Origin: an uncultured Oscillospiraceae bacterium
GTDB taxonomy: Bacteria; Bacillota; Clostridia; Christensenellales; Aristaeellaceae
Reading direction: 5' to 3'
NCBI GenBank assembly: GCA_964453505.1
Contig: CAYVPJ010000014.1
Span: forward strand, 240 to 64,239
DNA: 64,000 bases
Shown here: positions 6,003 to 50,819 of the stretch, one piece after another
Layout: every line of letters begins with the position of its first letter
How positions within the stretch are numbered: the stretch's first letter is position 1
Notes under the pieces: generated by a model
Told to the model about the DNA's origin: nothing
What the model saw: only the letters and a program-made list of their open reading frames with translations
The model's database searches: none
Made by a program: the position numbers and the translations under genes

Positions 6003-6006
6003 TTAT

Positions 6007-35308: not shown

Positions 35309-35325
35309 AACTTCTCCTCCGAAGC

Positions 35326-35350
35326 GGCGGGGGAGACAAGCTCCCCCGCC
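35326..35350 (-). other. Intercistronic 10-bp perfect stem-loop after the SBP gene
   Basis: GGCGGGGGAG, 5-nt loop, CTCCCCCGCC, lying between the SBP stop (35373) and the GH74-like start (35308). Confidence 0.5.
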
Positions 35351-35372
35351 GGAAAGGTATGCGTTTTTTGAG

Positions 35373-37079
35373 TTAGTTCGCTTCCACGATTGAAACGTTG
35401 TCGATTATGAAATCGAAGTTGTCGCCCGCGTAGATGAAGAACGTCGGCTCGGAAACATTCTGGAAGCCTATCGTCGCGCTCATCGTGCCGCTGTCGCCTG
35501 CGAGCGCCTTATCGAGAGTAACCCAGCCCTGCGTGTCAACGTCTTCGAATATCGTGGCATAGGGACGGGCGCGCACTATGAGGCCGTAGTCGCCCTGCAT
35601 GTCGTCGAGTATTTTATAATCGAACGTCATCGTGTAGTTGTGATAATCCGGGGTGGGAGCCATGTCGTAGTCGGCGTATATAAGCACGCCCCACGCGCTG
35701 TTTTCCTGAGTCACTTTGAGAGATTTGCCGTCGATAGCCTCGTCGCCCTCGACGATCTCGAATGTCGCTGCGTTCGTCTTGAGCCAGCCGGTAGTGCCAT
35801 CCTCAAAGTCGACTGCGGGCAGCGGCTCGAAGGCTTCGATCGTGGGCAGTTCGAACTTCTGCATGGCTATGTCGACCTGAGCCTGCCACGCGGGCGTGAA
35901 GCGCTCTACGACGCTAGCCGCGTCCTCGCCGCCCCATTTGAAAGCTCCCCAGAGATCCCACTGTATGTTCCACAAATCGGCTATGCCGCCAAAGCGCGCC
36001 GCGCGACAGTTGAGGCGGGCTTCTTCATTGATTTTGGATTGCTCCTCGTCGAAGTATTCGACCCAATCTTCAGCGTAGTGAAGCTGCGAGTATTCGGACA
36101 TCGCGTACAGGTATTTCGCGGCGGCTTCGGGGTTCTTGGCGCCCACGGGAATACCGTAACCTGTCGACAGGCCGGGGCCTTTGCCGTCGGTGTTTGACGG
36201 ACCAAGCGGGAACGGCACCCAAGCGTATTCGAATTTCGCGCCGTCGGTCGCGAGGTTCTTCAAATAGCTGTAGCGCTCGCCCGCCATCGCGAGGCGGCCG
36301 GACAGGAACATGTCGTACCAGAGGTTGTTGAAATCGACCGTCGCGAACTTATCGACGTTGTAAGTATCGCTCAGCATCTGCATACCTTCGAGGACGGCGG
36401 GGCTGTTCCACGCAAGCGTTATAACGCCGTCTTTCGAGTATTCGACGATGTTGCCGCCGTTGGCGACGATGAACAGCTCGCTCATCCAGCTTTCGTAGCC
36501 GTACTGGTCGTAAGCGCCGTCGTTATCGGTGTCCTGCGTAAGCTCAACGCCGAGCTCGCGGAAAGTGTCGAAATTCCACTCGCCGTTTTCGTAGTATTCG
36601 GTGGGCGTAGTCAGACCGTTGTTTTCGAACATGGTCACGTTGTACAGTATGCCGACCGGCTGAACGCCGCCTTCGGAGCTGTTGACCGCGTAGTGCTTGC
36701 CCATCCACTCGTAGTCGTTGTTGACGACGGGAGAGAACACGCTCGCGTTCACGTCAAGGTAGTCGTCGAGGGGCTGCATAAGACCTTTGGTGATGTTCTT
36801 CGGAAACTCCTCGAACGTCATTATGTGTATGTCTTTGGAAGTGCCGCCCGCAACGTCCGTGAGCAGCTTCAGGTTGCGCTCTTCCCAGCCCACGATTTCG
36901 TACTCCATTTTGATGTTGTACTTGTCGAGTATCCACTGGTCCATTTTTTGCGTGCTTGCGTCCACCTCGCCGTACCAATAGCTCGTGATGGTTACGGTTT
37001 CCGCGTAGGGTTCGACCGCGAACGCGACCGCGGACATGAGCAGCGCGAGGGAAAGGATAAGCGATGCAAGTTTCCTCAT
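35373..37079 (-). CDS. CUT1 solute-binding protein with a C-terminal CBM-like beta-sandwich extension
   Basis: RBS AAGGAGG. Signal peptide MRKLASLILSLALLMSAVAFA. SBP body of about 420 aa, then about 140 aa (DFEDGTTGWLKTNAATFEIVEGDEAIDGKSLKV ... FDFIIDNVSIVEAN) with a galactose-binding-domain-like pattern. Confidence 0.8.
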   Translation of the reverse strand: MRKLASLILSLALLMSAVAFAVEPYAETVTITSYWYGEVDASTQKMDQWILDKYNIKMEYEIVGWEERNLKLLTDVAGGTSKDIHIMTFEEFPKNITKGLMQPLDDYLDVNASVFSPVVNNDYEWMGKHYAVNSSEGGVQPVGILYNVTMFENNGLTTPTEYYENGEWNFDTFRELGVELTQDTDNDGAYDQYGYESWMSELFIVANGGNIVEYSKDGVITLAWNSPAVLEGMQMLSDTYNVDKFATVDFNNLWYDMFLSGRLAMAGERYSYLKNLATDGAKFEYAWVPFPLGPSNTDGKGPGLSTGYGIPVGAKNPEAAAKYLYAMSEYSQLHYAEDWVEYFDEEQSKINEEARLNCRAARFGGIADLWNIQWDLWGAFKWGGEDAASVVERFTPAWQAQVDIAMQKFELPTIEAFEPLPAVDFEDGTTGWLKTNAATFEIVEGDEAIDGKSLKVTQENSAWGVLIYADYDMAPTPDYHNYTMTFDYKILDDMQGDYGLIVRARPYATIFEDVDTQGWVTLDKALAGDSGTMSATIGFQNVSEPTFFIYAGDNFDFIIDNVSIVEAN

Positions 37080-37155
37080 GATTGTGCCTCCTTGTTTTTG
37101 TTTATGTGCTTCCGCGTTAAACGCGGCAACATCATCTGTGGAAGGTCGGTAATCG

Positions 37156-38124
37156 TCAGCCGACGATGCCCGTGCGCTCTATGCTTTCGGTGAAGTATCT
37201 CTGGAACACAATGTACATGACGAGCATTGGCAAAATCGAAAGCAGAGCGCCCGCCTGCAATTTGGTCGCGTACTGATACGGGTCGTTTATGTTCACGCCC
37301 AACAGCGGGTTTTGCCTCAAAGACGCGAGCGCCGTAGACACCACGCGCCAGCCGCCCATATACATCTGCGGGTAGAAGTATTCGTTCCAGTACCACACCA
37401 TCGAAAACAGGAAAACCGTCAGTATGGCGGGCACGGCGTTGGGCGCCATAACGCGCGTGAACGTCGAAAACGCGTTGCAGCCGTCTATGCGCGCGGCGTC
37501 CGACAATTCGCGCGGCAGGCCTCTGAAGAACTGGCGGTATATGAATATGAACAGCCCGCTCCTGAGACCCATGCCGAGCGCCGACGGCAGCAGATACGCC
37601 CACGGCGTGCCTATCAGGTTAGGCGTCAGATCCACGCCTATAAGCCCGCCCAACAGGCCGAACAGCCCGAAGAAGTCGATGTTCTGAAAGTTCAGATACA
37701 TCGGTATCGCGAGCGTTATCTGAGGCATAATGATCGTGAATATTACAAGCGCGAACAGCGGACCGCGCCCAATGAATCTGAACTGCGCGAAGCCGTAGCC
37801 TACGAACATGCAGACTATAATCTGCAATACTGACGACGTCACGCACACAAGCAGCGTGTTGAGCACCGTATGCGTTATGTCCATAGCCCGAAAAGCGTCC
37901 GATATGTTTTCAAACGTCGGGCGGCGCGCTATCCACGCGACAGACGGGTCGGTGAGCTCGCGCGACGGTTTTATGGCCGTCGACAACATGAACAATATCG
38001 GATAAAGCAGCACGAAGCATACGCATGTCAGTATGACGGCGCGGGCGAGTATCCACGCCCACTTCGCAAGAGCGTTCTTCGCGATATACGCAATCGTCGG
38101 GCTGTTTGCGCTTCTCATATACAT
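37156..38124 (-). CDS. Carbohydrate ABC transporter permease, MalG-like
   Basis: EAA loop LSDAARIDGCNAFSTFTRVMAPNA. Start is ATG 38124 or 38118, after AGGGGTG. Confidence 0.9.
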   Translation of the reverse strand: MYMRSANSPTIAYIAKNALAKWAWILARAVILTCVCFVLLYPILFMLSTAIKPSRELTDPSVAWIARRPTFENISDAFRAMDITHTVLNTLLVCVTSSVLQIIVCMFVGYGFAQFRFIGRGPLFALVIFTIIMPQITLAIPMYLNFQNIDFFGLFGLLGGLIGVDLTPNLIGTPWAYLLPSALGMGLRSGLFIFIYRQFFRGLPRELSDAARIDGCNAFSTFTRVMAPNAVPAILTVFLFSMVWYWNEYFYPQMYMGGWRVVSTALASLRQNPLLGVNINDPYQYATKLQAGALLSILPMLVMYIVFQRYFTESIERTGIVG

Positions 38125-38131
38125 CACACCC

Positions 38132-39055
38132 CTATTCGGTTTGATAGAACACGAATTTCGACATCAGCGCCGCCGCCAATCCGACCACGCCGAACACGCA
38201 CAGCGAGTATATCCACGAAATCGCCGTGCCGTAGTCATAACGCATCTGCACGATGCCAATGTTGTATATCATCTGCATCATGCCGTTCGCGTAATCGGTG
38301 AACGAGTCTATGACGGTGAAAACGACGCACACGAGCAGTATGGGCGATATGATGGGCACGGTTATGCGCCAGAATTTTTCCCACGCCGTAGCGCCCTCGA
38401 CATCCGCCGCCTCGTACAAACTGCGGTTTATCGATTGCAGCCCCGCCAGCAACAGCAATATCTGCACGCCGCATTTCCACAGCAGGTCGAACACCTGACT
38501 AACAATATTCGTGTAGTAATCTATGACGGACGCGGGCAAGTTCGCGCGCTCGAGCACCTGCGTGAGCCCCTGCGCCCTGAACACATGCAACGCTTCGGAG
38601 CCCGTCTGCATACTCTGGGCGAACACGTCCTCGCGGATTATGTTCATGATGACGCCCGAAGCCACGATTACGGGCAGGAAGAATATAGCCCGAACTATGG
38701 TGCGCCCCCTGAAATTCTGATTTATGAGCAGCGAGAGCATCAGGCTCGATATAACTATAACGGGCATCGAGAACAGCATTGAGCCCATCGTGGACATTAA
38801 CTCCGGCAGGAAGCTCGTGTCGGTTCGGAACGCGTATATGTAGTTTTCAAAACCCACTCCGCGGGTCACATATCCGCCCTCCGGCGGTATGGCGACCTTG
38901 CAGAACGAAAAGTACAGCGACTGACCGAGCGGATACGCGAAGAACAGCGAAAAACCTATTATCCATGGCATCACGAACAGTATGCCGTTCAGGCTTTGCC
39001 TGCCCCTGTAACTCAGGCCGCGCGGCTTTTTGCGGCGCGATTTTGTAAGAATCAT
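38132..39055 (-). CDS. Sugar ABC transporter permease, MalF-like
   Basis: EAA loop LYEAADVEGATAWEKFWRITVPII. ATG overlaps the upstream stop (ATGA) after GGAGGTG. Confidence 0.9.
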   Translation of the reverse strand: MILTKSRRKKPRGLSYRGRQSLNGILFVMPWIIGFSLFFAYPLGQSLYFSFCKVAIPPEGGYVTRGVGFENYIYAFRTDTSFLPELMSTMGSMLFSMPVIVISSLMLSLLINQNFRGRTIVRAIFFLPVIVASGVIMNIIREDVFAQSMQTGSEALHVFRAQGLTQVLERANLPASVIDYYTNIVSQVFDLLWKCGVQILLLLAGLQSINRSLYEAADVEGATAWEKFWRITVPIISPILLVCVVFTVIDSFTDYANGMMQMIYNIGIVQMRYDYGTAISWIYSLCVFGVVGLAAALMSKFVFYQTE

Positions 39056-41220
39056 CGTTTCACCTCCGATATGCCGAAAGAGCGGGCTTTCACGGTAACG
39101 CCGTCGGAAACAATATCCCCGTTAGAATAGTTGACGAGCACCGCGACGCCGTTATCGTACAGGACGCGCACAAGCCCGTCCTCAGACTTCTGATAATCGA
39201 CGATGCGCGCGCCCGCACACGCCGCCAGCGCGTCTTTGGCGCGCAAATACATATCGGCGAAGCCTTCGAGCCTGCCCATAGCGTAGTCGGAGTACATGGC
39301 GGCGTAAGGCGTGAACTTAACCTGCGACGGATTTTCATATATAAGCGAAAACTGCAAATCGCTTCCGCATTCAACCGCGCGCAGAAGCGCGGTCTCAACG
39401 TCGTCCAAGCGGTTTAGGGGCGTGGAGGCGTAATTGATAGAGCCGTGCAGCACCATTTGCATAAACGGTATCTCGGAATCGAACAGCTTGTGGCGGCTTG
39501 AATACAGGGGAATGTCCGTCACCGACTCCGCGTAGCCATACGCGTATGCGTTCGGGTTCGAGAGCATAAGCGGCTTGTCTTCGCTAAGTTTTTCAAGCGA
39601 CGACTCGATTTGCTTGCACACTGTCTCGAAGAACACGAAGCGTCCGTCCTTCCAGTCGTAGAACACGCTGTTTCCGAGCGACCCGGCGGCGTTGTATGCG
39701 TATTCGATGCCCTTCGCGCTTTCGGCGTAGTCGCTCGCCAAGCCCGACAGGCGGTCGGCCGAAACGACGTATTTCGGCGGCTGATCTTCGTTCGGGAACA
39801 GCGTCGAAAGCCTGTATTCATATTGATACGCGACAGACTTGTTGATGCCCTTGGCGAAATCCCACATGCTGAAGCCGTTTCCTGTTTGAGCGATGTTAAC
39901 GAAATCGGCGTTCAGATAGATAGGAATGCCCTCGCCCCGCGCGTATTCGAGCAACACGTTCAGATCGCCGAGCTTGCTCTCGGGTTCGGCTTCCGCGGGC
40001 GCTTCGCCGCCCAAGCCGCCGTCTATCCAGCCGTCGTATATGAGCGATATGTCGCAAACGCCCAGCGCTTTCAATTCGGAAAGCATTTCTTTTGCCCGTT
40101 CGAATTGCGTAAGGCTCACGACTGTGTTCACCGGCACTCCCATAACGGCCTTTTTGACAGTTACCGCGCCTGTGAGCGTCACATACATTCTCGATATGCC
40201 CGTATCCGCCCGCGCGCTGTCGAACGCGCCGCGCTTTTCAAGCACGCTTCTGTATTTATCGGCTATGGAGGCGACGTTCGCCTCGCGAACAGGGTAATAC
40301 CTTACGACAGGGTTTTGCTCAGGCAGCGCGTCGCCTATAGTGAGCGTAACGTTGCGCAGCGTGCCGCCCGCGCCAGGCAGCGACGCTGAATCGAAAAACC
40401 GCGCGTCGGGCGTGAAATATGCCGTCGTGTAGCTCGTAAGCCGCATAGACTGAGTTGCGGTTATAGTGCCCGTGCCTTCGGACATCTCGACCAGCATGGC
40501 GTTACCGTTGTTGACGATTCCGAACGCGGGCATTCTGACGGTTTCGTCAAGCTCTCCCAGAAATTGCTTCGACATCGTGAGCGACGCGCCGTACACACGC
40601 TTTGTCCAATCGCCGAAAACTGAGCGGCCGTTGTTGTAGGACAGAACCGAGCCGCAGCCGTCCGGCAGCACCAGATAGCCCTCGTCGTCCAAGCCGCCCG
40701 CGCCGAAATACGGCAGAACCGCCATCGAGTACAGATATATCTCGTCGCGCTCCGCAAGCATGTCAAGGCGCGGCTCGACTTTCATGCAGCCGTCCTCCAG
40801 CGTCACATCGACTTTGAACACGAGGTTTTCTGACGGGCGCGGAAAATCGAAAGTAAGCCGCGCGCCTGAGTCGATAGCCTCATACGAAAAGCCGTCCTTG
40901 TTGACCGAGCCGACCAGCGTTGACGCGACGAACGTCAGCCCTTCCGAATCGTACATGTTCAATACGAACATAGACTGCATGTTCGTCTTGGGTATGCCCT
41001 TGCTGTTCTTGTCTTTCGAGCCTTCGGGCGGGTTCGAATACCATATCGCGCCCGTTTGCCTGTCCTCGAGCGCCAGAGTGCCGTTTTCGGGGTTTATATA
41101 CAGCCTCAGCCCGCTGTTTTCGGCGACGGGCGCGAAGCCCTCGGCGGGTGATTCGCCTGAGGCGAAGCACAGAAGCGCCGCCAGCGCCAGTATCACCGCG
41201 AGACAGTAGAGCGGTTTCAT
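39052..41220 (-). CDS. Secreted large protein, DUF5696-like (family name from memory), possible TIM-barrel glycanase
   Basis: Signal peptide MKPLYCLAVILALAALLCFA. Central region ISLIYDGWIDGGLGG ... IPIYLNADFVNI ... IPFMQMVLHGSINY suggests a glycosidase-like barrel. RBS GGAGG. Confidence 0.55.
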   Translation of the reverse strand: MKPLYCLAVILALAALLCFASGESPAEGFAPVAENSGLRLYINPENGTLALEDRQTGAIWYSNPPEGSKDKNSKGIPKTNMQSMFVLNMYDSEGLTFVASTLVGSVNKDGFSYEAIDSGARLTFDFPRPSENLVFKVDVTLEDGCMKVEPRLDMLAERDEIYLYSMAVLPYFGAGGLDDEGYLVLPDGCGSVLSYNNGRSVFGDWTKRVYGASLTMSKQFLGELDETVRMPAFGIVNNGNAMLVEMSEGTGTITATQSMRLTSYTTAYFTPDARFFDSASLPGAGGTLRNVTLTIGDALPEQNPVVRYYPVREANVASIADKYRSVLEKRGAFDSARADTGISRMYVTLTGAVTVKKAVMGVPVNTVVSLTQFERAKEMLSELKALGVCDISLIYDGWIDGGLGGEAPAEAEPESKLGDLNVLLEYARGEGIPIYLNADFVNIAQTGNGFSMWDFAKGINKSVAYQYEYRLSTLFPNEDQPPKYVVSADRLSGLASDYAESAKGIEYAYNAAGSLGNSVFYDWKDGRFVFFETVCKQIESSLEKLSEDKPLMLSNPNAYAYGYAESVTDIPLYSSRHKLFDSEIPFMQMVLHGSINYASTPLNRLDDVETALLRAVECGSDLQFSLIYENPSQVKFTPYAAMYSDYAMGRLEGFADMYLRAKDALAACAGARIVDYQKSEDGLVRVLYDNGVAVLVNYSNGDIVSDGVTVKARSFGISEVKR

Positions 41221-41236
41221 GTGTTCAAGCCTCCTA

Positions 41237-43306
41237 TCAGCTGTACCTGTAGAGCAGTTCGCGATAAATCGTGTTTCCGAACACGTATATTTCCTGAATG
41301 AGCGAGTATACGAGCACTATCACGAACACGACTATTGCCAGACCTATCACTGTTATCAGAAGCGCGATTATCGTCCTGAAGCCTGAGTATTGGTGGACTA
41401 TGCGCACGCCCTGATATATCATTACCGCCGTCCACAGCGTAAACGCCGTACTGAGCATCATCACGAACACGTATTCTTCAATGACGACAGCGTATGAAAG
41501 CGCGACTGAAATCAAGTTCATAAACACGAGCGGCAGAAGCGAGTATGAAGTGATAATCCATATCTCCTTCATTTTGCCCTCGCCGTTCATAAGCGTGCAC
41601 ATCGCCCAGTTGACAACCACGAAGAAACACGCGGGCGCGAACGTCGAAAGCGCCGTGATAAGCACGTTATATGTCTCCGCTCGGATTACGTTGTACGTAA
41701 ACGCCGTATACTGGTCGCTTATGACGGAAGTCGCGAAGTATGCGAGCAATATAGCGAACCCCAATTTTGCGCTGCCAGCGTTTTCGAATTTTACGTCCTC
41801 AAAGCCCTTCACCGGGTGAAGCATTGAGTACAGAGCGAACCTCAGTTTGCCGCGTTTCACGATCTCATACTCTGGCTTCGCATGTCTCTTTTTCCAGACC
41901 GAGCGCGCCGCGAGCGCCGCCGCCAACGCCAACAGTCCTATGAATATAAAGGCGAAATTGTCGCGTATGAAATTCTTGCGCCATTCGCGGAACGCGTCGG
42001 AATAGTAAACGCGCGAGTCGCCGAGCCTGAAATATTGAAGCGCCGAATCGTAATCGCCGAGCTTCAGCGCGGAACGCCCGAGGCTTATGTAAGCAAGCTC
42101 GTTGTTCGCGTTCATCGCGAGCACCTGCCGCCATATCTGCGCCGCCTCTGCATAGCAGCCGTCGTTGTACAGAAGCGTGCCCTCTATCGCGAGCCTGCCG
42201 TAATCCGTCGCCTCATACAGCGTTATCGCGCCGGTTCGCGAATCGAGCAGTATAACCCGCCCGTCGGGCAGCACCTCGACCGCAGTAGGCAAAAGCGTGT
42301 TGCCTGAGTTGGAGCCGCTGCCGCCGAGCGCGCCTATCATGTAGCCCTCAATGTCGTATACGAACACGCGGTTGCGTTCAATATCGAGCGCGTACACGAT
42401 TTTATCGTGAGTGGCGACGTCAGAAAACTTGCTGTCGTACAGAACGCCGCCCACCCACTGTATTTCAAGGTCTCCGAAGTCGCTTTCGACGTATATGTTC
42501 GTGCCCTTAGGGTTCAGCGCGCGTATCTCGTTTATGGATGTTTTCTCAAAATCGCGGCCTATGGTCGCGTATATGAAGCCCTTTTCGTCAAGGAATATGC
42601 TCGAATACGCGGTGGGTATGGTGCGCACGCTCGCGCTGCGCTGTTCGTCCGACATGATGCGCTTCCAGAGGCGCTTCAAAACCATCGAAGGCGTCGGGTT
42701 TATGGTGTTCGCGCCGAAAAAGCCGAGGAACTCGCCCTTCTGGTCAAACGTGAGCATACCCTGATAACAGCCCTGCGAGAGTATGTACACAATGTCGGAA
42801 TTGTCGACTATGACCTTCTCCGGCTGATAGTTGAAGCTTGCGGACAGCAGCGCCGATTTGAAGTTTGCGAACGATGTTTTGAAATTAAGGTCTTTATCCA
42901 GCGACACGACCCTCGCGTTGCCCGTGTCCGCTATGTATATGTCCCCGTTTTCGCGCACGAATACGCCGCACGGGTTTTTAAGCACGCTCTCAGAGCCGTC
43001 TATCGTAACCGACGTTATTTCGCGCGCGAACCGCATATCCGCGCCAAGCTCTACAACGCGGTTGTTGCCGGAGTCGGCAACGAATACGCGCCCGTCGGGC
43101 GAGACGAAAATATCCTGCGGGTTTTTGAACGCGGTCGTGCCCAGCTCTGTGGCGATATATGTATTCGTAGGCAGAAACGCGTTCGGCGTTGCTACCGATT
43201 CCCCGTACACGTTGTAGTTGTACCCGCGATAACCCGATTCCCACGCGAAAGCGCACTGCGGAATAACGAGCGCGATCAAAAGAATAATCAGAATGCGTTT
43301 CAACAT
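41237..43306 (-). CDS. NHL-repeat beta-propeller + TPR + Yip1-domain polytopic membrane protein
   Basis: Signal peptide, then six NHL-like blades (FKNPQDIFVSPDGRVFVADSGNNRVVEL, LKNPCGVFVRENGDIYIADTGNARVVSL, LLPTAVEVLPDGRVILLDSRTGAITLYE and others). TPR-like segment YAEAAQIWRQVLAMNANNELAYISLGRSALKLGDYDSALQYF. One TM helix, then a 5-TM Yip1-like C-terminus. ATG at 43306 lies 8 nt after AAGGAG. Confidence 0.8.
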   Translation of the reverse strand: MLKRILIILLIALVIPQCAFAWESGYRGYNYNVYGESVATPNAFLPTNTYIATELGTTAFKNPQDIFVSPDGRVFVADSGNNRVVELGADMRFAREITSVTIDGSESVLKNPCGVFVRENGDIYIADTGNARVVSLDKDLNFKTSFANFKSALLSASFNYQPEKVIVDNSDIVYILSQGCYQGMLTFDQKGEFLGFFGANTINPTPSMVLKRLWKRIMSDEQRSASVRTIPTAYSSIFLDEKGFIYATIGRDFEKTSINEIRALNPKGTNIYVESDFGDLEIQWVGGVLYDSKFSDVATHDKIVYALDIERNRVFVYDIEGYMIGALGGSGSNSGNTLLPTAVEVLPDGRVILLDSRTGAITLYEATDYGRLAIEGTLLYNDGCYAEAAQIWRQVLAMNANNELAYISLGRSALKLGDYDSALQYFRLGDSRVYYSDAFREWRKNFIRDNFAFIFIGLLALAAALAARSVWKKRHAKPEYEIVKRGKLRFALYSMLHPVKGFEDVKFENAGSAKLGFAILLAYFATSVISDQYTAFTYNVIRAETYNVLITALSTFAPACFFVVVNWAMCTLMNGEGKMKEIWIITSYSLLPLVFMNLISVALSYAVVIEEYVFVMMLSTAFTLWTAVMIYQGVRIVHQYSGFRTIIALLITVIGLAIVVFVIVLVYSLIQEIYVFGNTIYRELLYRYS

Positions 43307-43311
43307 GCTGC

Positions 43312-44169
43312 TCACTCCTTAATGCCCGCGTGGGCCATCGTTTCCATAACGCGCGACTGCGCGAGGCAGAACGCGAGTATCGGCGGTATCATCAATATGA
43401 CTGACGAAGCCATGCCCGCGCCGAAGCGCGCTATACCCGCCGTGGCTATCTGCGAAAACGCCGTGGGCAGCGTTTTAAGCTGTTCGCTGTATACAAGCGA
43501 CCCGCCGGAGTTGTTCCACATGCCCTGAAACGTGAATATGACTAGCGTGAGCCACGCGGGCTTGACCTGCGCCATTATTATCGAGAAAAACACGCGCCAT
43601 TCGCTCGCGCCGTCTATGCGGGCGGATTCAATGACCGAAATCGGAATCTGCTCCATGAACTGCTTCATAAGGAACACGCCGAACGAACCGCCGAGCGCGG
43701 GCAGTATGAGCGCCCAGTACGTGTCTATCATGCCGAAACCGCTCAGTATGACGAACTGCGGCACGTACGTCACGCGCGATGTGAACAGGAGCGCGGTTAC
43801 GACTATGTAAAAGAGTATGCCTTTACCGGGGAAACGGTGTTTCGCCAGCGGGTACGCCGCCAAAGACGCTATGAGCACATACGCGCCCGTGCCGACGACG
43901 CTTATGAACACGCTGTTGAATATATAGCGTGAAAACGGAACCCAACTGTTCGAAGCCACGAAAAACAGGTCGGAATAGTTGTCCCACACGGGGCGCTTCA
44001 CGAAAAACTTAGGCGGATATATGAATATCTCCTCAAACGGTTTGAACGACGAAAGCACCGTATAGAGAAGCGGCACAGCCATGAACGCCGCGATTATGAC
44101 TAGCATTAAAACTACGAGCGCGTTACCGAATCGCGATCGCGATAATCTGACCCTTTTGTAGCGTTTCAT
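43312..44169 (-). CDS. Carbohydrate ABC transporter permease, MalG-like
   Basis: EAA loop VIESARIDGASEWRVFFSIIMAQV. RBS GGAGGGG. Confidence 0.9.
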   Translation of the reverse strand: MKRYKRVRLSRSRFGNALVVLMLVIIAAFMAVPLLYTVLSSFKPFEEIFIYPPKFFVKRPVWDNYSDLFFVASNSWVPFSRYIFNSVFISVVGTGAYVLIASLAAYPLAKHRFPGKGILFYIVVTALLFTSRVTYVPQFVILSGFGMIDTYWALILPALGGSFGVFLMKQFMEQIPISVIESARIDGASEWRVFFSIIMAQVKPAWLTLVIFTFQGMWNNSGGSLVYSEQLKTLPTAFSQIATAGIARFGAGMASSVILMIPPILAFCLAQSRVMETMAHAGIKE

Positions 44170-44179
44170 GCGGCCCCTC

Positions 44180-45103
44180 CTAGTGTGATACCTTGCCGAG
44201 AATAGAGCGTATAACCTGATTTATCACTATCATCGCTACGAACAGCACCACAGCCACGCTCGACGCGTAACCCATCTCGAAGCGTACCGTGCCGTAGTCA
44301 ATAATGTATGTGACTATCGTATCAGCGGCGTAATTCGTAGTGGGGAAACCCGCGAGCGACATGCATATGTCGGCGACCGAGAACGAAGCCGTTATCTGCA
44401 TTACCGCGCCGAATAAAAGCTGCGGGTACATGCTGGGCACCGTTATATACCACAACTCCTGAAAACGGTTGCGCACGCCGTCGATGGCGCCCGCCTCGTA
44501 GAGGCTTCGGTCTATCGACTGCATACCGGCTATGAAAGTCAGAAATCCCGTGCCGAGGCTGAGCCACAGCTGCACAATAATTATCACGGGAAGCACATAT
44601 TTCGTGTCGTACAGCCAGAATATGGGTTCGCGTATGACGCCGAGGCTTATCAGAAAGCCGTTCAGCAGGCCGTATATGTCGGAAGAAAATATGTATGACC
44701 AGATGAAGTAAACGCTGCCCGCGATGCTCGGCGCGTAAAATATGACGGTGAGCAGAGTGCGCGACCGGCGCGGAAGCTCGTTTATGAACCACGCGAACAC
44801 GAAGCACATTACATAGCTCACAGGGCCTGTTATCAGCGCGAACACGAGCGTGTTGCGCACGCACTTTATGAACACGTCGTCTTCGAGGAACAGTCTTATA
44901 AAGTTGTCGAAGCCCGTAAACGAGGGAAGCTGCACGAGATTGAAGTTTGTGAAGCTCAGATATATCGAAATCGCGACGGGCGCGATAGTGAACACGCTGA
45001 AGAACAGTAAAAACGGTGCCATCATGGCATAGCTTACAGCGGACAGCCGTATGCGCTTGAAAAGGCCGTCGCCCTTTGTCAGTCTTAAGGCTTTAGCTTC
45101 CAT
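44180..45103 (-). CDS. Sugar ABC transporter permease, MalF-like
   Basis: EAA loop LYEAGAIDGVRNRFQELWYITVPSM. ATG overlaps the upstream TAA by 1 nt (TAATG) after GGAGGA. Confidence 0.9.
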   Translation of the reverse strand: MEAKALRLTKGDGLFKRIRLSAVSYAMMAPFLLFFSVFTIAPVAISIYLSFTNFNLVQLPSFTGFDNFIRLFLEDDVFIKCVRNTLVFALITGPVSYVMCFVFAWFINELPRRSRTLLTVIFYAPSIAGSVYFIWSYIFSSDIYGLLNGFLISLGVIREPIFWLYDTKYVLPVIIIVQLWLSLGTGFLTFIAGMQSIDRSLYEAGAIDGVRNRFQELWYITVPSMYPQLLFGAVMQITASFSVADICMSLAGFPTTNYAADTIVTYIIDYGTVRFEMGYASSVAVVLFVAMIVINQVIRSILGKVSH

Positions 45104-47970
45104 TACTGTTCCTCCTTCGCGCCGTCAAGCCCAAATTCGACGCGCTTGCGCTGTATTTCCGCGTCCACCTGCATCATGTGCCGATAAAGCGTCTCGCGCG
45201 GATTCGTCTTGCGCGTCTCAACCTCGCGGAACGCGTTGTCAAGGCTGCGCGACATATAGTAGCCGCCGGGTATTTCGGGCAGCTCCTCTATGAACGCCCA
45301 TTGCTCGAGTATCAGTTCTTCCTCGGCGCGAGTCCAGCCCAGCTCGCGGAACGCCGCCTGATTTGCCGTGTTATACCTCGCCGCCGCGCCCATCACCGTT
45401 TCAAGCTCCCTGCCGTAGCGCGACTGTATCTCGGCGCTCGTCCACCATTTCATGAACTCCCAAGCCTCGTTCGGGTGCTCGGTGCCACCTATCATTATGC
45501 AGGCGCTGCCCGAAGCGGCTTCAGTTCTGTCTATTTCGCCGTCACCGTTCAGCGTGCCGGGGATCGGCAGCATCTTCCACAGATTGCGAATTTCAGGGGC
45601 GGCGACCGTCAGAAAGTTGTACGTCGTGTATGACGCTATGCCCATGGGCATCTCGCCCGAACGAAACCGCGTGCCGAAGTCGTAGAACACGTCGAGCTTG
45701 TAATTCGTATAAAACTCAGTCCATTCCTGAAACGCGGTTATGGCAGTGGTCGTGTCGAGCGCCGTTTTTGTCATGTCGTCGGAATAGAATTGCCCGCCCG
45801 CCTGTAAAAGCAGCGCGGGAAATATACTCTGACTGCCCATGCCGGTGTATACTAAGTCATAGGCTGTGAGCGTGCGATAGGGCAAGCCCACGCTCATGTT
45901 GTTGCGCTGTATTGTGGGCAGTATTTTATAGAAGTCCTCCCACGTGTCGGGCGGCTCTATGCCAAGCTCGCCGAATATGTCAGTGCGGTAGAACAGCATG
46001 TGAAAATCCTGCGTTTCGGGCAGCGCGTAGTGTTTGTCTAGGAACGCGTAGGGAGTCATCGCCGTTTCCGAAAAGTCAGCCGTCGCGCTTTCGTAGCCGA
46101 TAAAATCGTCCAGAGAGCGCAGCGCCCCGCGCATAGCCAAGTTGACGGGCTCTCCGCGACCCACGCCCAGCGCCACATCAGGCCCGATGCCCGTGAGTAT
46201 AGCCTGCACAAGCGTGCCCTGAACCAGCGATATATTCACCTGAATGCCCGTGCGCGGCGTAAACAGGTCGTCGACCAGCTTTTTGAGTATTTGCGCCTGA
46301 TCGCGGCCAGAACCTATCCACACTTTCAGCGTGACGGTTTCGCCCGAGTCGGAGTACACATTGCCGACCGAGTTATAGTCGTTTGTGAAAGACGATATGA
46401 ACGAAAGCGCCTCGTGCTTGAGCGAATCGCCGAAGCTCGCGTCGCCGTCGGGCAGAGCCGCGCCGGGCGCGTAAACGGCGATGTAGTCAAGCTGCAAGGG
46501 CTGATAGCGCACCTCGTACAGCCACGCCGCCAGCGACGATATGTTGTCGCGGAAGTTTTTGAGGCTGTCGGGTATGGCGTAGGGCTTTTCGGCAAACGAA
46601 TCGATTTGATCTGTCAGGCGCGTTATTATTGCGGCAGTGCCGTCGCTTTCGCCGAGCAGGTCGGTAAGGTCCGCAAGCAGTTTATCAAGCTGCGCATTTG
46701 CTTGCTTCAAGCTCGGTATCAGGTTCGGTATCTGGCTTTCGAGCACGTAGTCGACATATGGGTCGGGCGACGCACCGGTTATCATCACGATCTTTCTGTA
46801 TATCGAGTTAAGCGCGTATACCGCCTCGTCGACTCCAGAAAACAATTCCGCCATGTCGCCCGGCGTGACCTCCATAGTGAGCGTGTGTTCGCCCGCCGCA
46901 AGGTATATCTCGAACGGCTCGTCTCCGCCGAGCGTTTTAATCTGAAAGCTTCCGTCGTAATCGAATTTCACGCCGCGCATTTCTGCGAACGGACACTTGC
47001 CGTCTATGTATATGTTTCTGCTTGAAAAGAAACCGCGCACATAGCGCTGCAAATAGCGCATCGAAATCGAATACCGCCCGTTTTCGGGTATAGTGAACTT
47101 CCAAGTCACAGTCTGCCCGACATACTGCCAGCTTTCGCCGCCCAGCACATTTATACGGATTTCCGACGGGTGATAAGGCTGCGTCGCGGGGCTGGAACGG
47201 TCGGTTTGCGGGGCTATGGACGAGTCGCTTTTGTACGCCGCCGCCTCCGCCTGTATTATCTGAACATATCCCTCGGGCGCGCGCGTATCGGGCGCTGATT
47301 TTATGTATTCAGCGTATGGAATTTCAGGCGATTCGGCGAATATGCGTATCTGATCGAGCACGAACCTTTCTCCGAAGCTTATAAGCTCGACGCTGTGCTC
47401 GCCCTTAGTCAAATAAAGTTTCAAAGAGCCTTTGTTCATGCCGTCGCCGTCCGCGAACGCGCGCGTGTTCCACATCGGTTTCTCTGTCTGCGACGGGCTT
47501 ATCTGATTGCCGCGGTTGTCCGACTGTATTTCGCCCGCGTCCTCCCACATGCGCGGAAACACGAACGAGCGGGCTTCGTTATACGGATACGCCCCGTCGA
47601 GCGTCAGCGCGACCTCGACCGAACCGTTCACGCCCTGCACGGGGAAGTACGTCATTTCATACGCGTACAGCCCTTCGCTTTCGACGTTGAACGTGAACCT
47701 CGCCGTTCCCGTACCCGACAAAAAGTCGACCGCGCCGTCGCTGCCCGCGTAGCCCGTGAGCGGAGTCACGTCGCCGGAAACGGGCTGAGCCTGCGCGCCG
47801 TCGAGAATTATTTCGCCTGCGCCGTCGACGGCCTTTGCGCCTAAGCGCCTTATATACATAGCGTATGTGTTTCCGCGATCGTATTCGGCTTCGGCGGCGC
47901 TTTCCGCTCCGCATACCGCCGCCGTCGTCGCGAGGGCGAGAGATAACAGACATGCCAATAGTCGTTTCAT
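45103..47970 (-). CDS. Giant (about 955 aa) solute-binding protein: two CBM6/35-like modules + helical linker + CUT1 SBP domain
   Basis: ATG at 47970 follows GAGGGA. Signal peptide MKRLLACLLSLALATTAAVCGA. Two beta-sandwich modules (FTFNVESEGLYAYEMTYFP...; WKFTIPENGRYSISMRYLQ...). C-terminal half has SBP_bac_1-like sequence (VTLKVWIGSGRDQAQILKKLVDD...). The ORF-track extension to 48096 is rejected. Confidence 0.85.
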   Translation of the reverse strand: MKRLLACLLSLALATTAAVCGAESAAEAEYDRGNTYAMYIRRLGAKAVDGAGEIILDGAQAQPVSGDVTPLTGYAGSDGAVDFLSGTGTARFTFNVESEGLYAYEMTYFPVQGVNGSVEVALTLDGAYPYNEARSFVFPRMWEDAGEIQSDNRGNQISPSQTEKPMWNTRAFADGDGMNKGSLKLYLTKGEHSVELISFGERFVLDQIRIFAESPEIPYAEYIKSAPDTRAPEGYVQIIQAEAAAYKSDSSIAPQTDRSSPATQPYHPSEIRINVLGGESWQYVGQTVTWKFTIPENGRYSISMRYLQRYVRGFFSSRNIYIDGKCPFAEMRGVKFDYDGSFQIKTLGGDEPFEIYLAAGEHTLTMEVTPGDMAELFSGVDEAVYALNSIYRKIVMITGASPDPYVDYVLESQIPNLIPSLKQANAQLDKLLADLTDLLGESDGTAAIITRLTDQIDSFAEKPYAIPDSLKNFRDNISSLAAWLYEVRYQPLQLDYIAVYAPGAALPDGDASFGDSLKHEALSFISSFTNDYNSVGNVYSDSGETVTLKVWIGSGRDQAQILKKLVDDLFTPRTGIQVNISLVQGTLVQAILTGIGPDVALGVGRGEPVNLAMRGALRSLDDFIGYESATADFSETAMTPYAFLDKHYALPETQDFHMLFYRTDIFGELGIEPPDTWEDFYKILPTIQRNNMSVGLPYRTLTAYDLVYTGMGSQSIFPALLLQAGGQFYSDDMTKTALDTTTAITAFQEWTEFYTNYKLDVFYDFGTRFRSGEMPMGIASYTTYNFLTVAAPEIRNLWKMLPIPGTLNGDGEIDRTEAASGSACIMIGGTEHPNEAWEFMKWWTSAEIQSRYGRELETVMGAAARYNTANQAAFRELGWTRAEEELILEQWAFIEELPEIPGGYYMSRSLDNAFREVETRKTNPRETLYRHMMQVDAEIQRKRVEFGLDGAKEEQ

Positions 47971-48246
47971 ATAAAAAATTCCCTCAAATCGTCTGTCGTA
48001 TGCCATATATCCGTCTCTAATGTTAATGATACAACCAACTTCGCAAAAACGATATACACGGAATCTATCAATTTGTACCATTCTCATGCCGCACATAACA
48101 TTCGCGGCCGCACGAACGCCGCGCAGCCTTGCGTTTCAAACGGCGCATTTATATTGCAATTATGCTTCCTGTCTGTGCGCATAAGCGCCGGCCTGTTTTC
48201 GGACAAACCCCGCGCCCCGCCTTGAAACGCGTGAAATTGTAGCTTT

Positions 48247-48273
48247 ACAAAAACGCCACCCTGTCGGGCGGCG
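48247..48273 (-). terminator. Rho-independent terminator closing the AT-rich island genes
   Basis: Minus strand: CGCCGCCC-GACA-GGGTGGCG (one G-U pair) followed by TTTTTGT, about 50 nt after the stop at 48325. Confidence 0.6.
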
Positions 48274-48324
48274 CGGAAAGATAAAACCGTAATCAGGCGA
48301 ATTGATCAAAGCACATTATTTGTT

Positions 48325-48951
48325 TCACTCCGGGCGCTCAGGCATTCTTCCGTACAAGTCGTTCAATTCATCACCGTCGCAGTAACCAAGTAACGCGGAT
48401 ACATTCTGAAACAGTTCAGGAACGAGTCCGTAAGCGGTCATTCTTCCGTGCCCTTCGAGAACAATATAGCGTTCCTCAGCTTTGTCCGTCAAGAATATCA
48501 ACGGCGGAAAAGTGTAGCCATCTCGGATTTTTTGCGCGCCGCTCAGTGCCCTATCATTTGGAACGCCGTATATGGTCTTTCCCGATAATATGGTCTTAGC
48601 CGCCTCAAGCGGCGACCCAGTGTAATTCGATAGCTCGTTCCAATAACTATATTCTATATAGAAAATCTTACTGATATCTTCGGCATCAAACGCAGCCCAT
48701 ATCCAGTCGATTTTCTGCGGGAATCTTTCAAATATCTCAGAATCAGGATAACCTCTGAAGCGCCCAAGCACAATCTTTCTCAACGCGTTCTCATTGCTTG
48801 ACTGTTTATCGCCGTTTTCGATAAGCTTCCTATCAAGGTTCAGTTCCAGTAATACAGAGAGTATCTTTTCGGAATACCGATCAGAATCTATCTCCATTTT
48901 CAGAAACTCCAAAACCATTTCATCTTCATTTGATTGTTTGATTTTCCTCAT
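48325..48951 (-). CDS. Hypothetical protein in the AT-rich island
   Basis: RBS GAGGGA. 208 aa. AT-rich codon usage unlike the flanking genes. The segment YIVLEGHGRMTAY is faintly ParB/Srx-like, but I cannot assign a family. Confidence 0.6.
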   Translation of the reverse strand: MRKIKQSNEDEMVLEFLKMEIDSDRYSEKILSVLLELNLDRKLIENGDKQSSNENALRKIVLGRFRGYPDSEIFERFPQKIDWIWAAFDAEDISKIFYIEYSYWNELSNYTGSPLEAAKTILSGKTIYGVPNDRALSGAQKIRDGYTFPPLIFLTDKAEERYIVLEGHGRMTAYGLVPELFQNVSALLGYCDGDELNDLYGRMPERPE

Positions 48952-48958
48952 GTATCCC

Positions 48959-49237
48959 TCATAGCGCAGTGTTCAGTTTGCATTTTGGATAGCAAAACGC
49001 CATCGGATAATATGATCCAAATATCCCGACAAACACTGCGCATATCTCTTGTTGTGATGTGTGAAATCTATATTTTGCCTGTGCAATATCCGTATCTCCA
49101 ATCGTGTTCATCTGCATATTCCGATTTCCCGCGTCGCTCGTCCAATGTACAAATATAAAGTTATAAAGATAAATGATATTCTCATCAGGCGGGATTATCG
49201 TTTCTTTGCCGATAGTCTTACATTCATCAGTTCCCAT
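48959..49237 (-). CDS. Small hypothetical protein, start uncertain
   Basis: Stop is 8 nt upstream of the next gene's start. No convincing RBS at ATG 49237. Overlaps the upstream gene's 3' end by 11 nt. Could be a remnant. Confidence 0.3.
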   Translation of the reverse strand: MGTDECKTIGKETIIPPDENIIYLYNFIFVHWTSDAGNRNMQMNTIGDTDIAQAKYRFHTSQQEICAVFVGIFGSYYPMAFCYPKCKLNTAL

Positions 49238-49955
49238 ACTGATGTGGAACATACGGCAGAATTGCCCATGTAACATCATCTGCGGATATGTTTTTCGCCT
49301 CAAGGCTGCGATAACCGACCGTTGCTTCTTCGCAGGGATACTCCCGACAATCAAAGCAGGTTTTTTTGTTTTTTCTTTTTAGGCAGTTGATTGGCGGACA
49401 TGTTTCGCTTCCGTCTTGATAGCACTGACAACCCGGCGTGTCACACCCGGTACAGCGCATATCCCAGTTTGTGCTTCCATACACTGCCGTCAGATGTGGT
49501 ATCAGCATCGTTCTGAAATCATCCGCGATGCCTGTGAAATGCACGCACTGATCACAGCGGTGTCCGCACTTGCCGTATAGCGCCTTCTCTTTTGATGAAG
49601 GTTTACGGTTAGGCTTCTTTTTGAGCACTATCAGCTTTTTGACATTTTCCAGCGTGGGTAAATCATCTACGCGTATCAAAAGCCACTTACCGTCATGAAG
49701 CGTCCTCTCATTGTCGTATAAGTCCTGTATCTCTTTCGAAAACTCATTTCGCTGTTCTTCAAATTTCTGTCGTTCAGCCATGCCAAAGACTATAAGGAAG
49801 TCTAAATAATCAGGGTGAAGAAGCACCGTAACAATCGTTTTACTTCCCTGGCGAAATCGCACACACCGATTGCCGGAGTGCACGCCTGCCACCTCGTCCA
49901 AACGATATTGCCCACGCAAAAACTTAATAGTCTCCCGAACAACTTTTTCGTACAT
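49227..49955 (-). CDS. DUF3788-like + DUF3795-like Cys-rich fusion protein
   Basis: ATG at 49955. N-terminal half matches my recollection of the DUF3788 pattern (FLIVFGMAERQKF ... DGKWLLIRVDD ... LIVLKKKP). C-terminal half is Cys-rich: CGHRCDQCVH ... CTGCDTPGCQC ... CPPINCLKRKNKKTCFDCREYPC. Confidence 0.6.
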   Translation of the reverse strand: MYEKVVRETIKFLRGQYRLDEVAGVHSGNRCVRFRQGSKTIVTVLLHPDYLDFLIVFGMAERQKFEEQRNEFSKEIQDLYDNERTLHDGKWLLIRVDDLPTLENVKKLIVLKKKPNRKPSSKEKALYGKCGHRCDQCVHFTGIADDFRTMLIPHLTAVYGSTNWDMRCTGCDTPGCQCYQDGSETCPPINCLKRKNKKTCFDCREYPCEEATVGYRSLEAKNISADDVTWAILPYVPHQYGN

Positions 49956-50261
49956 GCTAATACGCCCCCATTTGTATATTGTCTTTCGGTTGCGTTGGCA
50001 CACGCATAATCAACTTGGTCTGCATATTTTGTGTCTCCATGCCCGTCTGTGCCATAGTATCATTGTTGCGATTACTACAGTGCCTTGTATCCGTTCACCT
50101 TTTTCATAACTTTCTATCCATTCCGGCCTTCATTAAATCAAATAAACGGTTTGGGGTTTTGCTCCCAAACTTTATGATTGGATATAGCGCTTGCACCCGA
50201 ATAATCAGGACTTCCGTAATGACTTGTACCTGCAGTAGATTTTGTGATATTTCTAAGCAAA

Positions 50262-50819
50262 CTAATATTCCAGAAATCCTTCTAATATTATGTCAGAGTT
50301 GTTCTTTCTTAAGTTCATACTTAGCATTTCCTGATGGATTATTTCCTTAACGCCTTCAGTTTTTATTGAGATCGTACCGTTTGTTTTCTTAATCAAATTT
50401 TCATATGGTTTACCTTTGGCTAGTTGCTCTGCCATATTAAACATTTCTTTACCTTTCCTCTCTATATACAAAAAGTCGTAAAATTGCAAAAACGGTACGA
50501 AGTCTATAGCAATCCATAATGCAATGATCCAAATAACAATATAGTTATCGTTATAGTGCGACATAGCATATTCAACTACATCACCAAACAGCTCGTCAAA
50601 ATCAAACACAATACTGTCGTATCCTTTTGCCATTTGATGAGGATTATGCATGTAGAACGATTGCTCTTCAATATACCAGTATAATTCTGATATAACTAAC
50701 AGATCAAATTCAAAGTTACCACACATTATCGGCCCATTTCGTAATACATCGATCGACTCGTTCCATAATCCTGCATTTTGCAGTTCAGCTATTTTGTCTT
50801 TATACTGAACAATATCCAT
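50262..50819 (-). CDS. Hypothetical protein in the AT-rich island
   Basis: Strong RBS GGAGGAG 6 nt upstream of the ATG. 185 aa, acidic and aromatic-rich. No family recognised. Confidence 0.6.
   Translation of the reverse strand: MDIVQYKDKIAELQNAGLWNESIDVLRNGPIMCGNFEFDLLVISELYWYIEEQSFYMHNPHQMAKGYDSIVFDFDELFGDVVEYAMSHYNDNYIVIWIIALWIAIDFVPFLQFYDFLYIERKGKEMFNMAEQLAKGKPYENLIKKTNGTISIKTEGVKEIIHQEMLSMNLRKNNSDIILEGFLEY

Follow-up and report, generated by a model that had tools for sequence, protein, structure and literature searches.

A conserved eight-gene locus for two CUT1-type importers, a DUF5696 protein and an NHL-TPR-Yip1 membrane protein in an uncultured Oscillospiraceae bacterium

ATP-binding cassette (ABC) importers of the CUT1 type are the main oligosaccharide uptake route of Gram-positive fibre degraders, and the usual picture is of a solute-binding protein (SBP), two permeases and a shared ATPase. 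The locus described here lies in a 64,000-nucleotide stretch of DNA from an uncultured Oscillospiraceae bacterium (contig CAYVPJ010000014.1 of assembly GCA_964453505.1, positions 240 to 64,239), which is referred to below, in its whole length, as the window. The locus consists of eight genes, named A to H in the order of transcription, that encode the components of two CUT1 importers (A, B and C; F, G and H) and, between them, a membrane protein, D, and a secreted DUF5696 protein, E.

The closest described system is found in Caldicellulosiruptor, where an operon written xloEFG-X-GH129-axoFGE-xynF... forms the promoter-proximal part of the xylan degradation locus (XDL) (PMC8579813). The promoter-proximal genes were up 10-100-fold on xylan, with a rise on Avicel as well, and the operon was placed in the XynR and AraR regulons (PMC8579813). 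Fluorescence polarization and bio-layer interferometry confirmed that XynR binds the operator upstream of Athe_0174 (PMC12285236). The transporter genes were also found to be xylan-responsive in a separate study (PMC5658599). The Csac cassette abuts the xylanase genes Csac_2411-2404. The C. bescii DUF5696 orthologue is labelled GH129, a CAZy-derived annotation; MsmK is given as the CUT1 ATPase common to the C. bescii transporters; and XloEFG, X, GH129 and AxoFGE are treated as separate items (PMC8579813). The transporter names and the substrates, xylo-oligosaccharides (XOS) and arabinoxylo-oligosaccharides (AXOS), are predictions from gene context, X is the Yip1 protein, and no role is given for X or GH129. 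The Caldicellulosiruptor papers make no mention of the eight genes as a unit conserved beyond the genus.

Protein A of the window is 45% identical to Caldicellulosiruptor ADQ03720 and ABP67996 (Csac_2419), whose loci carry the same eight genes, and the orthologues of the cassette are Csac_2419-2412 and Athe_0174-0181, in the same order, with Athe_0177 and Athe_0178 of C. bescii as the counterparts of D and E. The AbrB/MazE regulator, GT2 and alpha-amylase genes upstream match Csac_2420, Csac_2426 and Csac_2428 (supplement of PMC5658599), which identifies the cassette with Csac_2419-2412. The identity to the C. owensensis orthologues is 45% for A, 37% for D over its full length and 27% for E. 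An earlier note on this DNA, made from the sequence alone, had described a module at 39052-47970 and had named no experimental function for such neighbourhoods. The real unit is longer, 35373-47970, since it includes the near-invariant F and G and usually H. As to function, no biochemistry was found, but the Caldicellulosiruptor orthologues belong to a XynR-controlled, xylan-induced operon (PMC8579813, PMC12285236, PMC5658599).

It is well supported that the locus, orthologous to XloEFG-X-GH129-AxoFGE, encodes a twin CUT1 importer of oligosaccharides together with two obligate partners that are not transporters. The fuller reading, that 35373-47970 is one copy of a widespread syntenic eight-gene cassette for the uptake of hemicellulose-type oligosaccharides in which D and E serve the twin importer as accessories, is given a probability of about 0.55.

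To evaluate the conservation of gene order, each GTDB species was represented by one genome in a pattern-plus-tblastn scan, and the best 80 of at least 570 DUF5696 loci, a top-scoring subset, were taken from it. These approximately 80 species-level genome loci were combined with the contigs of five database homologues, metagenome contigs included, to give 83 loci in which every open reading frame was scored against the proteins of the window. The order A-B-C-D-E-F-G, with or without H, was always kept, contig-cut loci aside. Yip1 adjoined DUF5696 in all 83 loci, NHL-TPR was present in 81, and F followed DUF5696 in 80. G was found in 76, C in 75, B in 73 and A in about 70, while an H-type second SBP was found in 57. 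Missing components fell mostly in loci whose listed order starts or ends within the cassette, many of them cut by the end of a contig. The position of the H-type SBP is 3' of G in Clostridia and Treponema and 5' of A in Paenibacillus and Cohnella. D is encoded by one gene in 30 of 78 loci and by two adjacent genes, one for NHL-TPR with a transmembrane (TM) segment and one for Yip1, in the other 48; it has thus been repeatedly split and fused and was never lost among these loci. The three most remote DUF5696 homologues that were looked up (23-27% identity) have the same arrangement with Yip1 adjoining. Since the order is kept in nearly all uncut loci at a DUF5696 identity of only 23-30%, the arrangement is more than chance. 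The earlier note had mentioned neighbourhoods of SBP, permease, Yip1 and DUF5696 in other Firmicutes, and the co-occurrence proved stricter than it had guessed. When the DUF5696 profile was run against 1.84 billion cluster representatives (clusters at 50% identity), 4,122 clusters were retrieved at E <= 1e-30.

The possibility was considered that the locus represents two unrelated neighbouring CUT1 transporters and two rider genes, kept together by operon inheritance or horizontal transfer and not depending on one another. The separate listing of XloEFG, X, GH129 and AxoFGE in the published annotation is compatible with this, as is the abundance of CUT1 loci in these genomes, with at least four in the window. 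However, at 23-45% identity the order is maintained in Clostridia, Bacilli, Spirochaetota and Dictyoglomota alike, in changing surroundings; no locus examined had DUF5696 outside the cassette; and D is split or fused but not lost. A mere assembly of neighbours is therefore considered improbable. A core with two importers and two partners that stays intact across these groups implies interdependence.

Several of the Oscillospiraceae copies carry one or two additional genes between the F and G orthologues (L006 at 13314-15825, also L015, L016, L019, L020, L025 and L069). Their products, which look like surface glycan-binding proteins, are secreted beta-sandwich proteins that have a Thr-rich linker and a TM anchor at the C-terminus and had no Pfam match.

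All genes of the 31-48 kb region lie on the minus strand, and the features are listed in Table 1. The five open reading frames A to E were where the earlier note had placed them, and direct reading of the sequence bore out all of its junctions. A and B overlap in TAATG, B and C are separated by 10 nt carrying GGAGG, and the C stop lies within the D start region in a GTGA overlap. An alternative D start, ATG at 43306, stands 8 nt after AAGGAG, is better spaced and is the likelier start; it corresponds to the stop/RBS overlap of the earlier note. D and E are separated by 16 nt carrying AGGAGG, E and F overlap in ATGA (39052-39055), and the F-G gap is 4 nt, so that from A to G all neighbours overlap or are separated by 16 nt or less. 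Looser spacing is found between G and H (76 nt) and between H and the next gene (64 nt, with a GC-rich hairpin). The frame of A can be extended to an ATG at 48006, where an NCBI-style call starts; the start at 47970 was favoured because a GAGGG ribosome-binding site lies 9 nt upstream of it. The terminator-like hairpin listed upstream closes the preceding gene, and A therefore opens a transcription unit, the leader of which is the stretch between this hairpin and 47970. In a promoter scan the matches were no commoner than in shuffled sequence, and no promoter is claimed. The hairpin after H has no T-run and is therefore not a canonical terminator; it is possibly the end of the unit or an attenuator. 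The G-H intergenic region (37080-37155) contains a short inverted repeat, CCGCGTTTAACGCGG, before a strong AAGGAGG site, a possible processing or attenuation element through which the ratio of SBP to permease would be set.

Table 1. Positions in the window of the cassette genes, of the parts of protein A and of the bordering hairpins
Feature	Position	Strand	Evidence
A: giant secreted solute-binding protein, 955 aa	45103-47970	(-)	SBP_bac_1
A, beta-sandwich 1, CBM35-like, aa 53-211	47338-47814	(-)	DSSP; N-terminal profile
A, beta-sandwich 2, CBM35-like, aa 236-369	46864-47265	(-)	N-terminal profile; weak Pfam CBM_35 and Golvesin_C matches
A, helical bundle, aa 371-488, between CBM-like modules and SBP	46507-46860	(-)	DSSP
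A, SBP domain proper, aa 547-945	45136-46332	(-)	Pfam, AF2, Foldseek
B: CUT1 permease, MalF/UgpA type, transporter 1	44180-45103	(-)	BPD_transp_1; NCBIfam GlcT, UgpA matches; EAA loop 'SLYEAGAIDG' in translation
C: CUT1 permease, MalG/UgpE type, transporter 1	43312-44169	(-)	BPD_transp_1; NCBIfam UgpE, GlcU matches
D: signal peptide, NHL propeller, TPR, TM and Yip1 multi-TM domain	41237-43315	(-)	Pfam Yip1, NHL, TPR; hydropathy
E: secreted DUF5696 protein, GH129-like three-domain fold	39052-41220	(-)	Pfam, AF2, Foldseek, family profile
F: CUT1 permease, MalF type, transporter 2	38132-39055	(-)	BPD_transp_1
G: CUT1 permease, MalG type, transporter 2	37156-38127	(-)	BPD_transp_1 6.6e-12
H: second SBP, 568 aa, with C-terminal CBM4/9-like tail	35373-37079	(-)	best PDB sequence match AbnE 6rjy
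Intergenic region after H, GC-rich hairpin GGCGGGGGAG...CTCCCCCGCC	35309-35372	(-)	read from sequence
Terminator-like hairpin with T-run, closes gene upstream of cassette	48253-48274	(-)	

The family assignments of the earlier note (SBP_bac_1, BPD_transp_1, NHL/TPR/Yip1 and DUF5696) were all confirmed in a Pfam hidden Markov model search. The four permeases B, C, F and G matched BPD_transp_1 at 6.6e-12 to 2.7e-06, were grouped by NCBIfam with UgpA/UgpE and GlcT/GlcU-type CUT1 components, and all have visible EAA loops. The parts of a CUT1 system (TC 3.A.1.1), a cluster-B/MalE-like SBP with MalF-type and MalG-type permeases carrying EAA loops, are thus present. Cross-scores of B against F and of C against G were approximately 30-90 bits, compared with 200-420 bits for true orthologues, so the pairs are old paralogues, not recent duplicates, and there are two distinct importers. 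No MsmK/MalK-type CUT1 ATPase was found in the cassette or in the 64-kb window, where the sole ABC ATPase, at about 58 kb, belongs to an amino-acid system. The missing ATPase is not disqualifying because CUT1 systems of Bacillota usually share one MsmK/MsmX (PMC8579813). In 11 loci (for example L075, 1519-2478) a gene upstream of A encodes an ABC ATPase whose C-terminal domain is MazE/AbrB-like (SpoVT-AbrB); it is not of the MsmK type.

The SBP_bac_1 match of A (E = 2.5e-22) spans aa 559-849. An AF2 model built from 36 homologues (pLDDT 86.5, pTM 0.80) was analyzed by DSSP and consisted of a signal peptide, two beta-sandwiches, a helical bundle and the SBP fold. Foldseek matched the SBP domain at approximately 1e-19 to 1e-16 to binders of cello-, sophoro-, malto- and cycloisomalto-oligosaccharides. 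A fold search with the whole of A was swamped, for the N-terminal half, by SBP and maltose-binding protein (MBP)-fusion matches, and it was replaced by a profile of the N-terminal region. With this profile, sandwich 1 matched CtCBM35 2w47 at 3e-3, as well as 2vzp and 2y8k, and sandwich 2 matched the CBM35 of CITase 5x7g at 6e-9. The earlier note had called two carbohydrate-binding modules (CBMs) of the CBM6/35 type in A; they are supported at the profile level (6e-9, 3e-3), but in a single-sequence Pfam search CBM_35 stayed below threshold (0.028). That search also gave a weak Golvesin_C match on sandwich 2, and two A orthologues carry precomputed CBM_35 or Golvesin_C matches. The bundle is made of four long helices (371-398, 417-439, 447-461 and 463-488) and had no family match in the Pfam search. 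Among 36 A sequences with identities as low as 36%, 58 columns are invariant; many of these hold Trp, Arg, Asp or Glu and are located in both halves. This strong conservation over the whole length, the CBM35-like modules included, points to a common ligand.

The second binding protein, H, had no Pfam match over threshold. Its best PDB sequence match was the arabino-oligosaccharide SBP AbnE (6rjy, 7e-12), and a tail of about 145 residues (aa ~424-568; nt 35376-35810) gave a weak CBM_4_9 match (0.012).

The hosts of the cassette are Oscillospiraceae, other Clostridia, Lachnospiraceae, Paenibacillus, Cohnella, Caldicellulosiruptor, Treponema, other Spirochaetes and Dictyoglomaceae, and they are overwhelmingly plant-fibre degraders. 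Each flanking family is limited to 18 of 81 loci at most, the commonest being LacI, AraC, GH26 with CBM35, GH32 and DUF4838. The regulator beside the cassette is of LacI type in 18 loci and AraC type in 16, and elsewhere there are two-component systems or none. Flanking carbohydrate-active enzymes (CAZymes) are GH26 with CBM35 in 16 loci, GH32 in 12 and DUF4838 in 9; elsewhere they are GH78/GH2, GH28/GH95, GH20/GH130 or none, and L005 and L090 have only housekeeping neighbours. Xylan as a universal substrate was not adopted for the window, there being no adjoining xylanase here and GH26, GH32, GH78, GH28/95 and GH20/130 in the flanks elsewhere. Another reading considered was that the substrate is not dietary plant polysaccharide but a glycan that all hosts have in common, for instance an exopolysaccharide made by the cell or its community or a recycled cell-wall polymer. 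Such a ligand would fit the strong conservation of A across hosts while the flanking CAZymes vary, as well as the loci set among housekeeping genes. However, the only organisms with data show induction by xylan or Avicel and control by the xylan regulator XynR, and the hosts are predominantly fibre degraders, which makes a common glycan of this kind very unlikely.

Protein E matched DUF5696 (PF18952) with E = 1e-133 and 447.5 bits (gathering score 25.6) over profile positions 4-612 of 612. In an AF2 model from 20 homologues (pLDDT 87.9, pTM 0.89), residues 30-310 form a beta-sandwich at the N-terminus, 345-670 a (beta/alpha)8-type TIM barrel and 673-719 a second beta-sandwich at the C-terminus. 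When the model was compared with the PDB by Foldseek, the best matches were ZgGH129 (5opq, 1.4e-31) and NagBb (5wzr, 1.7e-24), followed by GH101, GH36 and GH31. The family profile matched the PDB sequences of NagBb at 2.8e-10 and ZgGH129 at 4e-9. A single-sequence PDB search found nothing, GH129 surfacing only by family profile and fold search. On the strength of these fold and profile matches, DUF5696 is taken as a remote GH129 branch, in agreement with the GH129 label of the C. bescii orthologue (PMC8579813). A literature search on DUF5696 found no paper, and no biochemistry was found for any orthologue.

The catalytic residues of NagBb, the nucleophile Asp D435 and the acid/base Glu E478, were aligned with the DUF5696 family. 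The D435 column, which is aligned with moderate posterior confidence, holds Ser in 88, Ala in 28 and Gly in 13 of 148 family representatives, never Asp or Glu, and is A511 in the window. The E478 column is acidic in 42% of the family and is S554 in the window, the 43-residue spacing being the same in both proteins. E appears not to use the GH129 catalytic pair. A set of other polar residues is conserved in the family: D70 (97% acidic), D187 (97%), D213 (91%), D522 (89%), R531 (93%), D581 (92%), N603 (99%) and E617 (97%). D187 sits in the most invariant motif of E, GYxxxPDGxG, which belongs to the N-terminal beta-sandwich and not to the barrel. Judged by these alignments, E seems to keep a conserved functional site that is not the canonical GH129 active site. 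The copy in the window departs from the family at S213 (Asp in 91%), F531 (Arg in 93%), Y521 (Ser in 83%) and T348 (Glu/Asp in 80%), and it may be a functionally altered or degenerate member.

E could instead be a genuine extracellular glycosidase with relocated catalytic residues that removes one alpha-linked decoration and so makes the products fit the two binding proteins, in which case the locus would be an ordinary combination of enzyme and transporter with D incidental. The GH129/GH101/GH36/GH31-type fold, the GH129 label in C. bescii, the rich set of conserved polar residues and the signal peptide are in keeping with such an enzyme. Nevertheless, the columns of the GH129 nucleophile and acid/base are not conserved acids, the most invariant motif lies outside the barrel, and the window copy is without D213 and R531. 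This alternative is a serious one, with odds a little short of even.

Protein D gave a Pfam Yip1 (PF04893) match of 4.6e-17 at aa 497-666 (62.9 bits, the cut-off being 28.6, over profile positions 3-172 of 173), an NHL match of 1.8e-11 (43.9 bits) and a TPR match at aa 379-430. The layout is an NHL propeller (aa ~45-370), TPR (376-450), one TM segment (455-473) and a Yip1 domain (497-692). Hydropathy indicated a signal peptide, an ectodomain of approximately 430 residues, the single TM segment, a Lys/Arg-rich loop of about 40 residues and the Yip1 block, with four strong TM segments and one weaker after aa 515. At the sequence level only, the ectodomain matched NHL propellers, including the PknD-derived 'Pizza' designs (Pizza6/7) at up to 3e-31 in five to six stretches and the PknD extracellular sensor domain (1rwi) at 8e-13, and the same PDB sequence search matched consensus TPRs. 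The earlier note had put the number of blades at six. A lactonase- or PAL-like enzyme was rejected, the SGL match of 0.005 being too weak. No cytoplasmic output domain was found in D; kinase, HAMP, GGDEF and DNA-binding domains are absent and there is only the basic loop.

A precedent for D is YknW, which belongs to the Yip1 family and is reported to modulate assembly of the YknXYZ ABC transporter (PMC4887032). Literature searches on YIP1 family protein with ABC transporter found only YknW and bacteriocin papers, and those on Yip1 with solute-binding or polysaccharide found nothing relevant.

D might alternatively act as a sensor or gate, its NHL propeller binding glycan, in the way suggested for the sensor domain of PknD, and its Yip1 domain switching the permeases allosterically or signalling to a nearby regulator. 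The resemblance of the propeller to the PknD sensor domain, the conservation of the ectodomain (mean column identity ~0.48) and the YesM/YesN-type two-component pair downstream in the window can be cited for this role. It is rather unlikely, however, because the basic loop is the sole candidate output, the neighbouring regulators vary between LacI, AraC, two-component systems and none, leaving no fixed signalling partner, and in Caldicellulosiruptor control is exerted by the cytoplasmic XynR and AraR. With no output domain and no constant regulatory partner, D is better explained as a scaffold than as a sensor.

The need for a scaffold is suggested by the signal peptides. ABC binding proteins of monoderms are normally lipoproteins, and most H orthologues conform, with a lipobox in 37 of 50; the H of the window has no Cys in its signal peptide and so no lipobox. 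A has a non-canonical 'AAVC' and no classical lipobox, and a lipobox was found in only 8 of 73 A orthologues. E has a signal peptide, with a lipobox in 2 of 23 orthologues. In most A and E orthologues the signal peptide ends at a site of the signal-peptidase-I type, for example VSA|E or VYA|D. Being mostly without a lipobox, in contrast to H, A and E need another tether, and the NHL-TPR ectodomain of D is the obvious candidate.

In the preferred reading, the uptake of hemicellulose-type oligosaccharides by a twin importer with D and E as accessories, transporter 1 would consist of A, B and C, with A mostly secreted without a lipid anchor across hosts, and transporter 2 would consist of F, G and the AbnE-like binding protein H. 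Both would presumably be powered by one shared MsmK/MsmX-type ATPase encoded elsewhere. E, on the extracytoplasmic side, would most likely bind the glycan on its way in, or trim it, in a putative pocket of conserved polar residues, and D is most likely a membrane scaffold or assembly factor that would hold the non-lipidated A and E beside the two permease dimers. We infer, with moderate confidence in each case, that D is an assembly scaffold and not a sensor and that E binds or processes glycan at a non-canonical site. A stronger form, a fixed supramolecular 'utilisome' of Gram-positive/periplasmic type in which the Yip1 protein, through its NHL-TPR ectodomain, docks the non-lipidated giant SBP A and a GH129-derived pseudo-enzyme or atypical enzyme onto two ABC importers as a core reused across phyla, is offered tentatively and is on balance unlikely. 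If true, it would be the first assigned role of a bacterial Yip1 protein in nutrient import.

Several observations weigh against the preferred reading. As the columns of NagBb D435 (0/148 acidic) and E478 (42%) are not conserved acids, E may not be an enzyme at all, and the copy in the window has lost the family-conserved D213 (to S) and R531 (to F). The scaffold role proposed for D is argued from topology, missing lipoboxes and one distant precedent, and A and E could simply be anchored by signal peptides that are not cleaved off. The substrate is uncertain since the flanking CAZymes vary between loci, and no xylanase adjoins the cassette in the window, where BNR/GH74-like, GH27-like, GH63-like, GDSL and URO-D genes are found instead. 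The synteny is that of the best 80 of at least 570 loci. Finally, the hosts include diderms, namely Treponema and Dictyoglomaceae. Of the earlier suggestion of a surface polysaccharide capture-and-import machine, oligosaccharide import remains reasonable, but capture at the cell surface is weakened by these diderm hosts, in which an SBP would be periplasmic.

Other features of the window were also noted. A stretch of approximately 4 kb upstream of the cassette (48000-52200) has 43-45% G+C, compared with 55-57% in the rest of the window, the drop lying upstream of the terminator-like hairpin. Its genes are small (DUF3788/DUF3795, YkuD-like or unannotated), and the stretch may be an insertion of foreign origin next to the locus. 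Directly after H, a gene at 32993-35308 encodes a 771-aa secreted BNR/Sortilin-Vps10 repeat protein that matched the NCBIfam 'F510_1955 family glycosylhydrolase' at 1.6e-37, under the cut-off of the model. It is followed by a third SBP, a lipoprotein, and by a YesN/YesM-type two-component pair. Two URO-D genes (uroporphyrinogen decarboxylase / MtaA-like; 22126-23337 and 24905-25972) lie downstream of the cassette among GH63-like, GH27-like, GDSL and DUF4832/GH42-like genes and may act on methylated sugars. Another CUT1 locus, at 23-7338, encodes an AraC-type regulator, an SBP, two permeases and an apiosidase-like protein (PF13204, E = 5e-94), and hints that the same organism uses rhamnogalacturonan-II or an apiose-containing glycan.

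The presence of CUT1 importers in glycan utilisation loci was already known, and one genus-level instance of the cassette had been annotated and expression-profiled. What is new is the cassette as a fixed unit conserved across phyla, the obligate coupling of DUF5696 and NHL-TPR-Yip1 to two importers, the DUF5696 family without the GH129 catalytic pair, and the lipobox asymmetry of A and E versus H. Since Caldicellulosiruptor/Anaerocellum is a biofuel organism amenable to genetics and the cassette heads its best-studied xylan locus, the roles of X and GH129 are testable. Resolving them would bear on the function of DUF5696, on the role of a bacterial Yip1 protein in an importer, and on the annotation of thousands of gut, rumen and soil genomes.

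Among solved structures, the SBP domain of H is closest to AbnE of the AbnEFJ importer of Geobacillus stearothermophilus; the CBM4/9-like C-terminal tail and the absence of a lipobox set H apart. E shares the three-domain architecture of CAZy family GH129, represented by the NagBb alpha-N-acetylgalactosaminidase (5wzn) and the ZgGH129 3,6-anhydro-D-galactosidase (5opq), with TM-scores of 0.63-0.73. However, the identity is only 12-14%, the D435 and E478 columns differ and the invariant motif of E is N-terminal. D resembles YknW of Bacillus subtilis YknWXYZ in that both are bacterial multi-TM proteins of the Yip1 family whose genes accompany those of an ABC transporter. That system, however, is a MacB-type exporter with a membrane-fusion protein, and YknW, which lacks an NHL-TPR ectodomain, is likened to D by family only. 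The Caldicellulosiruptor/Anaerocellum xylan locus has the eight orthologous genes in the same order, and an ATPase of its own is missing from both loci. In that locus GH10, GH43 and GH39 xylanase genes come after the cassette, which is controlled by XynR, a LacI-type regulator, and AraR, whereas here it is followed by the BNR/GH74-like gene, the third SBP, the YesM/YesN-type pair and GH27-like, GDSL, URO-D and GH63-like genes. With Gram-positive polysaccharide utilisation loci in general, which are analogous to the Sus-like loci of Bacteroidota, the cassette shares oligosaccharide SBPs, CUT1 permeases, CBM-bearing proteins, CAZymes and regulators. Those loci, however, are substrate-specific mosaics without a fixed core, whereas the cassette has a core of seven to eight genes, comprising two importers and two non-transporter partners, that is fixed across phyla.

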